NCBI RefSeq assembly: GCF_049554935.1 | Contig: NZ_CP186926.1 | Location: 128,001-192,000, forward strand | DNA length: 64,000 nt | Direction of reading: 5' to 3' | DNA from: Methanocaldococcus indicus | GTDB taxonomy: Archaea; AGJL01; Methanococci; Methanococcales; Methanocaldococcaceae | Shown here: in pieces, positions 36,926 through 43,702 of the stretch | How the letters are laid out: each line of letters starts with the position of its first letter | Numbering within the stretch: position 1 is the first letter of the stretch | Translations under genes and position numbers: made by a program | The notes under the pieces: generated by a model | Seen by the model: only the letters and a program-made list of their open reading frames with translations | Database searches by the model: none | What the model was told of the DNA's origin: nothing

Positions 36926-39316
36926 TTATTTTGGAAGAATCATTTTTCTAATTTTTTCAACATTTTTTATATATTTTTTATTAAAGATTTTTGAGATTCT
37001 TTCAATTGCATTAAGTAATAAAAGAAGTTGCTCTAAATAGATATACAAATCTCCACTATAAACCATAATTTTATAATCTTCATACATTATCTTAGCTATT
37101 TGTCCTGGATTTTTTCCTGTTGCTCTCAAATTTAATATTATTTGTAAGATTTTTAAATGTTCATCTACTCCTTCAAATTCCATTATAATCTCTGTCAATA
37201 AATCTTTAATTTGCTTTTCTGATATTTTTCCAAAGTTTTCTTTTATTATCTCCAAAGCATCAAAGAATCTTATTGGTAAATTAATATTTAACATTTGGTT
37301 TAATTTATTCCTCAAAGTTGGAGATAAATAAACATTTTCAAAAGGCATAATCTCAATAATTAACTTTAAGATATCTTCATTTTTTAAAATACTCTCTTTA
37401 ATTTTTTCAGCTACTTTTGGATATAAAAAGGATAATGCAACAGCCCTACCATAGTTAGTTATATCTCTATTTTTAACCATACCATACTTTTGTAGGTTTT
37501 CTAATATCTTAGTTGTTGAGAATGATTTACCTATATATGGGACTCTTTCAATATCTTTTATATTTGCTGATAGAGTAGCTAAGATTTGCTCTTCTTCTTC
37601 ATCTTCTGTCCATTCCACTTTTATATCTTCTGGCTTAGATGTTAATAGTTTAAAAGCTACTTCATCCTCACTCTCAACCATCTTAGCATGATACTTTTTC
37701 CCTATCTCTACTAAAAGATAAACTTTCCCTAACTCATGCATCCCCTTCCTTCCAGCTCTTCCACACATCTGTTGGAATTCAGATGGTGTGAGCCACTCTC
37801 CCCCCATAGCCAAACTTTCCAATATAACAGTTGAAGCTGGAAAATCAACACCAGCAGCTAATGCAGCAGTTGTAACCACACATTGAATTCTTTGCTTAGC
37901 AAAATCTTCCTCCACCTTCCTTCTTCTAAAATAATCTAAACCTGCATGATAGTAATCTGCTTTAATTCCTTTTGATTTTAAAGCTCTTGCAATCTGTTCT
38001 GCTCTTCTCCTTGAATATGTAAAGATTAAGCACTGTCCCCTATAACTATACTTAGAGATTGTATTCCACTCTTTTTTAACAATCTCCTTAATTATATTTA
38101 TTTTATTGAATTCATTTTTACAAAAAATAAGATGCCTCTCCAATGGAACAGGTCTTCCATTATATAAAACTAAATTAGCCCCCAATTTTTTTGATAGTTC
38201 TTTTGGATTTCCAATAGTTGCAGATAAATAAATCTTTTGAGCATCTTTAAACTTCTCTCTTACTCTACCAATTAATCCATCTAATCTCGCTCCTCTCTCC
38301 TCTAAATTTAAAGAATGGACTTCATCAATTACAACAGTTCCAACATCTTTAAGTTTATTTGCCCTTATTAAATAATCTATTCCTTCATAAGTTCCAACGA
38401 TTATATCCGCATCTAATGAAGTATTAATATCCAACTTTTTTCCTATTCTTCCCATTCCTACTCTTAAAGCTACTTTAAATCCTAATTTTTCATATCTTTC
38501 TTTAAATTCTAAATACTTCTGATTTGCTAATGCAACTAAAGGAACTAAAAATAAAAATTTCTTTTTCTTTTCAATTAAATTCTTGATTCCTGCTAACTCT
38601 CCAATTAATGTTTTTCCTGATGATGTTGCTGAAACAATTAGCAAATCTTTTCCTTTTAATAATCCAGCCTTAACTGAAAGAGATTGAACTGGCAAAAGTT
38701 CATTTATATTTCTACTTTTAATAGATTTTTTAAGTTCTTCAGGAATATCTAAATCATCTATTTTTAACAATTCAATATCTTCCTTATCTCCTTCTAAAAC
38801 ATCAAATTTTGTTAGTTCTGGCTTAGATACTGGATTTTTTAAATTCAAAAGAGAAAGAACTTTATCAACATCTTTAAATTTTCTTAAAAATTTCTCTATT
38901 AGCTCATCTGGTAAATTAACTTCATACTTAACTTCCTCAATAGCACAATTTAAACAAATATAATAATTCATATATTTACATCTTGTTTTATTTGGTAATT
39001 TTTTATAAACCTCTTTTAATAGACAGAAAGGACATAACTTTATAAACTCATACTTAATATTTAAGCTCTTAAAAACATCTTCAAGCTCTTTATCAGCTAA
39101 ATAAACTTTTTTTTCTTTTTTTAAAAGTTCTAAAACTTTTGATGGTTGAATTAATTTATCTCCTAATCTACACTTAAATAATCTGTATCTATCTCCAACT
39201 TTCTTATATAAACAAAAAATTTTTTTATTCTTCTCTACCTTTTCACCTTCATCAATATTCTTAACTTTAACAATCTCAATTTCATCCTTTTTTTTCTTTT
39301 TCTTTATAATAATCAT
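36926..39316 (-). CDS. Archaea-specific Ski2-like SF2 helicase (ASH-Ski2 type)
   Basis: N-terminal CPFC...CLNC, ATSSGKT, DEVH, SAT, YHAG, AGVDFPA, QMCGRAGR. Confidence 0.88.
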   Translation of the reverse strand: MIIIKKKKKKDEIEIVKVKNIDEGEKVEKNKKIFCLYKKVGDRYRLFKCRLGDKLIQPSKVLELLKKEKKVYLADKELEDVFKSLNIKYEFIKLCPFCLLKEVYKKLPNKTRCKYMNYYICLNCAIEEVKYEVNLPDELIEKFLRKFKDVDKVLSLLNLKNPVSKPELTKFDVLEGDKEDIELLKIDDLDIPEELKKSIKSRNINELLPVQSLSVKAGLLKGKDLLIVSATSSGKTLIGELAGIKNLIEKKKKFLFLVPLVALANQKYLEFKERYEKLGFKVALRVGMGRIGKKLDINTSLDADIIVGTYEGIDYLIRANKLKDVGTVVIDEVHSLNLEERGARLDGLIGRVREKFKDAQKIYLSATIGNPKELSKKLGANLVLYNGRPVPLERHLIFCKNEFNKINIIKEIVKKEWNTISKYSYRGQCLIFTYSRRRAEQIARALKSKGIKADYYHAGLDYFRRRKVEEDFAKQRIQCVVTTAALAAGVDFPASTVILESLAMGGEWLTPSEFQQMCGRAGRKGMHELGKVYLLVEIGKKYHAKMVESEDEVAFKLLTSKPEDIKVEWTEDEEEEQILATLSANIKDIERVPYIGKSFSTTKILENLQKYGMVKNRDITNYGRAVALSFLYPKVAEKIKESILKNEDILKLIIEIMPFENVYLSPTLRNKLNQMLNINLPIRFFDALEIIKENFGKISEKQIKDLLTEIIMEFEGVDEHLKILQIILNLRATGKNPGQIAKIMYEDYKIMVYSGDLYIYLEQLLLLLNAIERISKIFNKKYIKNVEKIRKMILPK

Positions 39317-41262: not shown

Positions 41263-42327
41263 TTATTTGTTTATATTTAACTTAAGATTTGCAATATTTA
41301 CTATAACTTCTTTAAGCTTTTTATCTTCAATCTTTTCAGGAATAACATCAAAATCAATAATGTTCTCATAATCTTTTTCTTTTATTTTTGTATTTGTAAT
41401 TAAGCTTTCCATTTCTTCAAATTCTTTCAACATTCTCTTTAATCTTCTAAGTTCAATTTCTAATTTTATTAGTTTATCTTCATCTACCTTTTCATCTGCA
41501 AGCATTTGTAAATAATTGATAATTAACATATGTTCTCTAAATGTTAGTTTAGTTACTTTTCTTGTTGATTCAACATCTATTCCCTTAGCTATTTTCAATA
41601 ATTTTAATATAGCTTTTTCAGAGAGATATCCTAAAAAGTGATATTGATACAATACATCCTCTAAGTTTTCTTTACCTATAAGTGAAATTAAAACTTCTAA
41701 AAATTTCATAACCAAAAGAAACTTCTCTGGTGTTAGAGGGATATCTTCAATTTTATACCTTTTGTCTTTATTTTCAGTTTCAGTTATAGTAATATTCCCA
41801 TTTTTATTTATATTAACTTCTTCAAGATTTTCAATAACTCCTTCTCTAATTCCTGCTGGTGGTCTATTTGGTTTATTAAATTTTATTCTTTTTCTTTGTT
41901 TATTATCAATTATGTAAATTGGTCTATAATAGACAGTCTTTATTTTTTCAATTTTTGCCATTCTATGTTGAACAGTATCAGATGTTAATAATACAGAGTT
42001 TGTTTTTTTGGCTATTTCTCTAATCATTGCATCAAGTTCTCCACTCTCAGCCAAAGAAATTTTTTCTAAACTTGGCCTCTCTCCAACAAATACAACCTTA
42101 ATGTTGAGAATTTTTTCTGCTTTTCTTAATAATTCTAAAACATCTAACCCTATAAAACCTTCCATTCTTTTTTTATTAGCCATATTTTCAATTTCAGCCA
42201 ATACAACATTTGGTATATAAACTGTACAATTTCTTATCTTCCCAGTTTTAATTAATTCTTCTAAAACTCCATTAATTATTACTGAAGTATCTACACATAC
42301 ATCAATTCCATCAAACCCATCAAACAT
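41263..42327 (-). CDS. PIN domain (PINA-type) fused to an ArlD/E (FlaD/E) domain
   Basis: N-terminal VDTSVII, VLAEIE, GERP, SGELDAMIRE, LLTSD; C-terminal KIEDIP...MKFLEVL...GKENLEDVL..Y..LGYLSEKAILKLLKIAKGI...KLT..EH...LEIELRRLK; start at Met31 of the ORF after GGGGA. Confidence 0.78.
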   Translation of the reverse strand: MFDGFDGIDVCVDTSVIINGVLEELIKTGKIRNCTVYIPNVVLAEIENMANKKRMEGFIGLDVLELLRKAEKILNIKVVFVGERPSLEKISLAESGELDAMIREIAKKTNSVLLTSDTVQHRMAKIEKIKTVYYRPIYIIDNKQRKRIKFNKPNRPPAGIREGVIENLEEVNINKNGNITITETENKDKRYKIEDIPLTPEKFLLVMKFLEVLISLIGKENLEDVLYQYHFLGYLSEKAILKLLKIAKGIDVESTRKVTKLTFREHMLIINYLQMLADEKVDEDKLIKLEIELRRLKRMLKEFEEMESLITNTKIKEKDYENIIDFDVIPEKIEDKKLKEVIVNIANLKLNINK

Positions 42328-42411
42328 ACAAATCCCCCAAACACTTTTAATAAGATAATTATAAAAATAATTTTTAAAATTGTAGTATATAAATGTTGAT
42401 GGTCGTGAATT

Positions 42412-43702
42412 ATGCACTTTATAAAGCTAAAAAGAAGAGAAGAAAATATTAAAAATCTAAAAGAAAAGAGTAAAAAATTTAGGTTAAAATTTAGGGATAA
42501 AGAACTTAAAAATTATTTAAAAGAATATCCTTTAAATCTAAATAGATATTTAACCAACTACTACACAGGAGGAATTATAAAAAAATATCCTGAGGATTTT
42601 ATTGTTGAGGAGGTAACTCCTGAAAAGATAATTTTAGAGGTTGGAAAGAATATAGAGTTTAAAGATGTTGAGAATTGGAAAGGTAACTTTATTCACTTCA
42701 CATTAGAAAAAAAGAACTGGACTACCTTAGATGCTATTAGAGAAATAGCCAAAAAAGTTGGTGTAAAAAGGAAGCATTTTGGATTTGCTGGGAATAAGGA
42801 TAAAGTAGCTATAACCACACAAAGAGTTGGTTGTTTTAATGTTCCTCTTGATAAATTAAAAAATGTTAGAATAAAGAATATTGTATTAAGAGATTTCCAA
42901 AAAGTTAATAAAAAAATAAAACTTGGAGATTTGTGGGGAAACAGATTCACTATAAGAGTTAGAGAACCAAAAATTTTGGGAGAAGAACTAAAAAATATCT
43001 TAGAAGATGCTAAAAATAACTATACTCACTACATAAATTACTATGGAATACAGAGGTTTGGTGAAAAAAGGCCTATAACTCATATAGTAGGTAGATTAAT
43101 CTTAGAGAGAAATTGGGAATTAGCTTTCTATCTATATTGTGGAACTCCTCTAAGCTATGATGATGAAAAAAACAAAATTAGCAAGAAAATTAGTAGATGA
43201 GGAGGAATTTAAAGAAGCATTAAAAATTTATCCAAGGGTTTTTTTATATGAAAGAAGGATGATACAGGCCTATTTAGAGAGTGGAGATTATAAAAAAGCT
43301 TTTAAAATTTTACCACCTTATTTAAGATGTATGTTTGTAAATGCATATCAATCATATCTTTTCAATGAAATTATTAATAAGAGATATGAATATGGATTTA
43401 ACAAGTTAGAGGGAGATATAGTATATAAATATCCTACTGGTGCTGTTTTTGGTTATAAAGTTAAGTTTGCCTCAGGAATTCAGGGAGAGATAGAGAAAGA
43501 AATATGGGAAAGTGAAAATTTAGAAAGAGAAAAATTTAAAATTGAAGATTTTGGAAGTTTTCAGGGAGATAGAAGGGAGATGATACAAAAAATTTATAAT
43601 TTTGATTATATATTATACAATAATAGTTATGTAGTAAAATTCTGTCTAAGAAAGGGATGCTATGCTACAACTGTACTAAGAGAATTTTTAAATGAGAGGT
43701 GA
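42412..43702 (+). pseudogene. truD: tRNA pseudouridine(13) synthase, split by one extra A in an A7 run (real mutation or sequencing error)
   Basis: ORF1 has PEDFIVEE, FAGNKDKVAITTQ, NYYGIQRFG; ORF2 (+1 frame) has FVNAYQSYLFN, GDRR, GCYAT.VLRE; junction at GAAAAAAAC 43165-43173. Confidence 0.85.

Follow-up and report, generated by a model that had tools for sequence, protein, structure and literature searches.

In euryarchaea the ArlC, ArlD and ArlE proteins are found at the archaellum motor, as CheF-binding components that are placed in the cytoplasmic ring; ArlD and ArlCE are mutually dependent, and they need ArlH for polar placement (according to the sections available of PMC10117864 and PMC7534055). 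No atomic structure of ArlC, ArlD or ArlE exists, as stated in the same sections of PMC10117864. PINA, the second system of relevance here, is described in the excerpted text of PMC6061704 as a hexameric ATPase that acts on Holliday junctions. Here we describe a gene of Methanocaldococcus indicus, located in a 64,000-nucleotide stretch of its genome (contig NZ_CP186926.1, positions 128,001 to 192,000, forward strand; hereafter the window), whose product joins a PINA-type PIN domain to a diverged ArlD/E-type domain. This PIN-ArlD/E protein is real, has a narrow distribution and constitutes an apparently new domain combination.

Positions 41263..42327 of the window, reverse strand, hold an open reading frame (ORF) with an ATG start that encodes a 354-residue protein. 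The gene and its parts are as follows (pLDDT, predicted local distance difference test).

41263..42327, reverse strand: the whole gene, 354 codons plus the stop codon at 41263-41265 (from the ORF list and translation).
41923..42300, reverse strand: PINA/MJ1533-type PIN domain, residues 10-135 (from Pfam, PRK13764, PDB 3i8o, the PINA alignment and model pLDDT).
41764..41922, reverse strand: linker, a basic stretch followed by a low-complexity stretch rich in Asn, Glu and Thr, residues 136-188 (from pLDDT and poor conservation).
41410..41763, reverse strand: diverged Arch_fla_DE (ArlD/E-type) domain, residues 189-306 (from Pfam, a 44-row alignment and a five-helix model).
41266..41409, reverse strand: C-terminal helical tail, residues 307-354 (beyond the column of residue 306, where the ArlD/E rows stop).

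The N-terminal half matches the Pfam PIN family (PF01850) over residues 10-125, with 42.3 bits against a gathering cut-off of 23.6. The NCBIfam model PRK13764, which represents PINA-type ATPases, is matched over its positions 5-134 only (E 1.9e-33), and the score of 115.9 bits, against a cut-off of 340, does not reach the threshold for a whole PINA protein. The ATPase and KH parts are thus absent, and Pfam found no T2SSE or KH match in the fusion protein at E<=1; the preliminary description of this DNA, made from the sequence by eye, had already noted that the ATPase was missing. It had also seen four acidic positions in the PINA pattern within the first ~135 residues. These are D13, E45, D99 and D117, and in an alignment with 19 PINA PIN domains of the order Methanococcales and a PIN-X protein from a third species of the genus, the tetrad is kept both here and in a second fusion protein from a sister species. 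The fused PIN domains share 47-50% identity with those of the order's PINA proteins. By sequence, the closest solved structure is PDB 3i8o, the N-terminal domain of MJ1533 (E 1.7e-32), and a Foldseek search with the AlphaFold2 (AF2) model of the full protein superposed it on the same entry with a template-modelling (TM) score of 0.87 and a root-mean-square deviation of 1.2 Å over 128 columns, followed by the SisPINA structures 5f4h and 5yww. Because the full acidic tetrad is kept, the fused PIN is predicted to be a metal-dependent nuclease or at least a nucleic-acid-binding module.

The C-terminal half belongs to the family that includes ArlD and ArlE. Pfam Arch_fla_DE (PF04659) is matched by residues 189-277 over profile positions 2-95 of 96, with 43.9 bits against a cut-off of 21, and the sister-species protein reaches 44.6 bits. 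When aligned with 44 ArlD/E rows (42 domain stretches from 20 genomes of the order, that of M. indicus included, and two library proteins), residues ~183-306 (nucleotides 41410-41781) run almost gap-free at 23-40% identity, in agreement with the ArlD/E domain placed by eye at approximately 41410-41760. The fold-defining core of the domain is kept, including Y229, H266 and E292. A low-complexity linker had likewise been recognised after the PIN domain; its ~50 residues are not conserved, are ~31 residues shorter in the sister-species protein, and carry a 3-nt in-frame deletion at 41817 in contigs from other sequencing runs. The tail that follows the ArlD/E-type domain is weakly conserved with the sister protein, a VNI motif for example being present in both; neither a Pfam family above cut-off nor any similarity to the ArlC of the same genome emerged for it.

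An AF2 model of the full protein, built on a 64-row alignment, assigned pLDDT >90 to residues ~190-300, modelled as a bundle of five helices, and to most of the PIN domain. Values fell below 50 at residues 151-172 and 180-188 in the linker and ranged from 45 to 76 in the tail, and the predicted TM score was 0.46. In the model, two folded modules are connected by a flexible tether and have no fixed relative orientation, since the linker is of low confidence and the overall predicted TM score is low. A separate model of the C-terminal half (mean pLDDT 81) had 0 matches in the PDB at E<=0.001, so its fold gives no functional clue. Complex prediction for residues 182-354 with the ArlE of the same genome scored 0.21 and 0.17 against a mark of 0.32; this prediction was run without controls and is used neither for nor against binding.

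The combination is rare. It occurs in 2 of the 40 genomes of the order that we analysed, those of two sister species of one genus. A word-indexed search of 5.8 billion clusters returned 22 matches, among which both domains were present only in the query and in the sister-species protein, and the same search with residues 180-354 found nothing beyond the query. An exhaustive HMMER search of 1.84 billion representatives retrieved 353 proteins at E<=0.001, and again just these two at E<=1e-30; a Pfam scan of 16 listed matches, included four aligned in two stretches and five aligned in the C-terminal half only, and all nine of these proved to be proteins with PIN plus another module, PINA, or plain ArlD/E. 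A profile search with the C-terminal half found, among longer proteins, 4 plain FlaD/FlaE proteins; scans of the viral_contigs and metagenome_contigs sets (alignment A4) found no relatives; and the ESM Atlas search returned PIN and PINA clusters only. A published description of a PIN-ArlD/E architecture was not found in the literature, supplements being outside the scope of the search, which agrees with the initial impression that the architecture was undescribed.

The preliminary description had itself raised the danger of an assembly chimera, which here would be a PIN gene fragment joined to an arlD/E fragment. Two observations would suit such an artefact. Among the listed contig pieces from runs X2 and X3, which come from a different study, none spans both PIN and DE domains with the 31 letters required on each side; and one X2 contig contains a joint that skips 666 nt (41274 to 41941), equal to 222 whole codons, which would reduce the frame to PIN only. 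The shorter side of this joint is 22 letters, the tool flags such joints as unreliable, and we leave it uninterpreted. On the other side, the separately assembled genome of the sister species (G008) encodes a 313-residue protein (P0002) with the same two Pfam domains in one frame, with an overall identity of 45% to the M. indicus protein (PIN part 62%, DE part ~45%). Near-identical, overlapping contigs from X2 and X3 tile the entire gene, and a single 82.5-kb contig from X1, a possible source run, holds the whole stretch. The resident PINA, arlD and arlE are also present elsewhere in the genome, at 31-49% identity to the fused domains. An assembly chimera is so improbable that, for practical purposes, it is ruled out.

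The same contigs speak to selection. Of 30 listed single-base differences within the coding sequence in the X2 and X3 contigs, 25 are synonymous and 5 are conservative non-synonymous changes (K>R, E>D twice, R>K and R>S), and the four insertions or deletions inside it, of 3, 3, 6 and 9 nt, are all multiples of three. These patterns indicate purifying selection on the translated frame.

As to its origin, the two fused PIN domains form a clade in a PIN tree of 38 rows (support 97/99) that lies outside the PINA clade of the order (99/95), its placement among the PINA-like PINs being unresolved. The fused PIN thus did not arise by recent copying of the resident PINA, of which a complete version (PIN, T2SSE and KH, 642 residues) is encoded elsewhere in the M. 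indicus genome. The two fused DE domains likewise group together (99/99) in a 44-domain tree, with tips of 1.18 and 1.24 on a stem of 1.2. Their clade belongs neither to the ArlE clade (100/100) nor to the ArlD groups, and for ArlD as for ArlE the two hosts come out as sister species. Identity between the two species is 80% for the N-terminal part of TruD, 82% for a Tsr3-like protein, 84% for HMG-CoA reductase, 95% for Ftr and 79% for ArlE, and 45% for the fusion. The simplest history would be that the domains fused once, in the last ancestor shared by the species pair, and that the fusion then diverged fast.

This gene encodes a lineage-specific two-module protein, made of a PIN head, a disordered tether of about 50 residues, a diverged ArlD/E domain and a short helical tail. 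Its anatomy, rarity, selection and origin are shown by the sequences, while nuclease activity, any binding partner and a place at the motor are inferred. We propose that it works as an effector with an address: the ArlD/E-type domain, as a protein-protein module, would decide where and with whom the PIN acts. The protein was probably put together in the common ancestor of the two species, its source being paralogues of a PINA-type PIN and of an archaellum ArlD/E domain; it has evolved fast after the fusion and is under purifying selection today. Such a modular view is suggested by PINA-type PIN heads that bear other C-terminal modules elsewhere (DUF11 and unknown domains). The most likely partners would be the ArlD and ArlE of the cytoplasmic ring, and we tentatively infer, with a confidence somewhat short of even, that the fusion acts at ArlD/E assemblies of the archaellum motor. 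What argues for docking at the motor is domain homology, and the contrary points set out below do not, in our reading of the sequences, refute it. Of the preliminary description, the architecture, the locus outside the arl operon and the apparent novelty have stood, and for the docking at the motor that it suggested nothing beyond the homology has come to light.

A more specific version, for which we can offer an analogy, would have the fusion link a PINA-type PIN head physically to the motor and place a nuclease head on the ArlH/ArlI/ArlCDE assembly. PINA joins PIN to a T2SSE (PilT-like) ATPase, ArlI is a T2SSE protein, and the ring that encircles ArlI is attributed to ArlC/D/E, which is why the arrangement comes to mind; we consider it a long shot. 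Were it true, the head might cleave RNA or DNA locally at the motor base, for example to turn over arl transcripts or to attack nucleic acid entering at archaella, or it might allow nucleic-acid-dependent control of the motor.

The genomes provide a setting for these ideas. M. indicus has a complete arl cluster, with four archaellin genes followed by arlC, D, E, F, G, H, I and J, and both fusion-bearing genomes have arlD, arlE and archaellins. Arl genes accompany the fusion in both hosts, a correlation whose check had been suggested at the outset, but because the hosts are a single sister pair this has no statistical force. Across the order, DE-domain matches number 60: 28 D/E pairs whose members are neighbours or close by, both fusions and two orphans; the one pair region inspected, that of M. 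indicus, is an arl cluster. In the promoter of this cluster (L034 12259-12460), the first archaellin gene is preceded by an AT-rich TATA-like stretch and, farther upstream, by two TACATA motifs with 12 nt between them. Far from this cluster, a CheF-arch frame (347-residue ORF) lies 1.2 kb from an extra archaellin-like frame (233-residue ORF; G000:C1:375318-376007 and G000:C1:377188-377799), and a second CheF-arch frame is found at C1:695729-696379. The two orphan Arch_fla_DE proteins, of 171 residues in G039 (L056 4251-4766) and 161 residues in G037 (L057 4529-5014), come from two other genera, where their genes adjoin acetyl-CoA synthase/carbon monoxide dehydrogenase (cdh) genes near a ribosomal RNA operon; the two share 38% identity and are nearer to ArlD than to the fusion.

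A number of observations weigh against a nuclease at the archaellum motor. Nuclease activity is not reported for a PINA-type PIN in the excerpted text of PMC6061704. Of the 28 near-invariant ArlD/E positions (conserved in >=90% of the 44 rows), 16 are kept in the M. indicus fusion and 14 in that of the sister species, and two Trp and one Ser, invariant in 44/44 rows, are replaced in both. The fused DE domains have the lowest Arch_fla_DE scores across the 40 genomes (46.5 and 47.3 bits, against 83-106 for canonical ArlD/E), and with tip sums between the two hosts of 2.4, against ~0.34 for ArlD and ~0.27 for ArlE, they have diverged ~7-9 times faster than ArlD/E. All ArlD and ArlE rows stop at the column of residue 306, and the fusion runs on for ~50 residues. 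The gene also stands outside the arl cluster, the true arlC-D-E-F genes being located at ~650 kb of G000:C1, and the EarA motif TACATA (identified as such in the available part of PMC10665913) occurs 0 times in the 173 nt upstream of the M. indicus fusion gene and the 187 nt upstream of its sister, compared with twice in 202 nt of the arl promoter and a window background of 0.89 per kb. The two fusion genes lie in different genomic contexts, at synteny breakpoints: the Tsr3-like gene (a neighbour of rpl40e, which was not itself searched) and truD, which flank the M. indicus copy, are not adjacent in 5/5 relatives, and the genes flanking the sister copy are far apart in M. indicus, in a genus where synteny is generally poor. 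Finally, the G039 genome (99% complete, a single contig) encodes an orphan DE protein but neither an archaellin nor any arlD/E match, so not every DE domain has to act at an archaellum.

These points lend themselves to a different account, in which the DE domain was repurposed away from the archaellum ring and serves for self-oligomerisation or for binding other partners, making the fusion a free-standing oligomeric PIN nuclease whose RNA or DNA targets have nothing to do with motility. We judge this unlikely on balance but worth taking seriously. The loss of both invariant Trp residues and the Ser, the changes at 12-14 of the 28 near-invariant positions, the weakest DE score of the order, the extra tail, and the lack of an arl operon link and of an EarA motif would all be natural for such a module, as would the orphan DE proteins beside cdh in two other genera, one of them in an archaellin-free genome; stand-alone MJ1533-like PIN proteins are, moreover, common in archaea. 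However, no role away from the archaellum is known for any DE-domain protein (see also the sections available of PMC10117864), and the retention of the core (Y229, H266, E292) under purifying selection is compatible with retained binding to its relatives. An improbable alternative is that the protein is a regulator rather than an enzyme, with its DE domain or PIN head mimicking a subunit and competing in the ArlCDE ring or on the ArlI or PINA hexamer, and thereby modulating archaellum assembly or rotation, or PINA function. Both modules are paralogous to subunits of ring assemblies, the resident PINA combining PIN, T2SSE and KH and the resident ArlI being a T2SSE ATPase; SisPINA forms hexamers (excerpted text of PMC6061704); and fast divergence between species combined with constraint within a species would suit a modulator. 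The retention of the four acidic PIN residues in both species despite 45% identity argues, though, for a catalytic or metal-binding role.

The remaining alternative, that of a young chimeric gene with no or marginal function, drifting after an accidental fusion, we regard as very improbable. Its restriction to a single species pair (2 of 40 genomes), its very long branches and its position at synteny breakpoints are what drift would produce, but the excess of synonymous over conservative differences (25 to 5) and the exclusively in-frame indels in contigs of another study, the intact frame, and the conservation of catalytic and core residues in both species are not. An effector addressed to the ArlD/E assemblies is our tentative reading. 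A natural protein in which the DE domain recurs as a module could help to reveal what this domain binds, ArlC, ArlD and ArlE being the least understood parts of the euryarchaeal motor. If docking is true, the fusion would be the first enzyme-like archaellum accessory known; if it is false, the fusion and the orphan DE proteins would show that DE is a general assembly module and not archaellum-only. The distribution over one species pair limits its general importance.

The surroundings of the gene also match the preliminary description, which had placed it between rpl40e and truD and outside the arl operon, and which proved correct in every detail that was checked. A Tsr3-like gene and rpl40e lie downstream and truD upstream, and the fusion gene is divergent from truD and convergent with rpl40e. 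A longer frame with a GTG start, extending up to 42417, would run into the start of truD. We take the ATG at 42327 as the start because GGGGGA lies 5 nt upstream and because this codon aligns with the first Met of the sister-species protein. Two upstream elements were read from the sequence.

42333..42338, reverse strand: GGGGGA run, putatively Shine-Dalgarno-like by its resemblance to the consensus, 5 nt before the ATG.
42386..42393, reverse strand: TTTATATA, presumably TATA-box-like by the consensus, 59-66 nt upstream of the ATG.

The second of these sits in an 84-nt divergent spacer common to the fusion gene and truD. The truD gene itself (42412-43702, forward strand) is broken into two overlapping frames of 262 and 181 residues by one extra A in a run of seven at 43166-43172; with six, it would read as in the sister species, where it is a single frame of 429 residues (429-457 residues in five relatives). 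Either a sequencing error in the homopolymer or a real frameshift could account for this split. Elsewhere in the window, positions 36926-39316 of the reverse strand encode a 796-residue DEAD/Helicase_C protein with a Lys-rich N-terminus and DUF5814 at its C-terminus.

The fusion can be set beside several known protein types. VapC toxins share with it the PIN fold and the acidic tetrad. A VapBC toxin-antitoxin pair was considered and rejected: there is no adjacent co-directional small antitoxin ORF, the neighbours being rpl40e, the Tsr3-like gene and truD, and the best matches of the PIN domain are PINA-type PINs, not VapC. PADLOC gave no match for the M. indicus protein (P0001) and two for the sister-species protein at ~14 bits (E 0.0045 and 0.0057), which we treated as noise. 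PINA (SisPINA, MJ1533, PRK13764) is the closest relative of the N-terminal half, with 47-50% identity, the same four acidic residues and a TM score of 0.87 to 3i8o. It differs in having a T2SSE ATPase and a KH domain; the fusion lacks both and is therefore not PINA, the full 642-residue form of which is encoded separately in the same genome. With ArlD and ArlE (FlaD and FlaE), the fusion shares the Arch_fla_DE domain, which aligns from end to end and has a helical fold at pLDDT >90 in the fusion model. Those proteins are encoded in the arl operon and end at the domain, whereas the fusion is encoded outside it, carries a PIN and a 50-residue tail, lacks 12-14 of 28 near-invariant residues including both Trp, and has a very long branch; by locus, C-terminal end and invariant residues it is not ArlD or ArlE proper. 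The orphan DE proteins of G037 and G039 resemble the fusion in being DE paralogues encoded away from the arl operon and in extending a short way beyond the domain at the C-terminus. Unlike it, they have no PIN and keep both Trp, and at 24-28% identity to the fused DE domain, and closer to ArlD, they are an independent offshoot. Parallels to the modular design of the fusion are provided, for example, by two proteins with a PINA-like N-terminal PIN: P0058, which couples it to DUF11, and a 284-residue PIN-X protein of the third species of the genus (G015; L032 4690-5544, G015:C1 ~245.7 kb), encoded beside a proteasome alpha gene. The PIN of the latter is ~40% identical to the fusion PIN and keeps the acidic residues, and its C-terminal half is a stretch of ~150 residues without a Pfam family. 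Both thus begin as the fusion does and continue with C-terminal modules unrelated to Arch_fla_DE.

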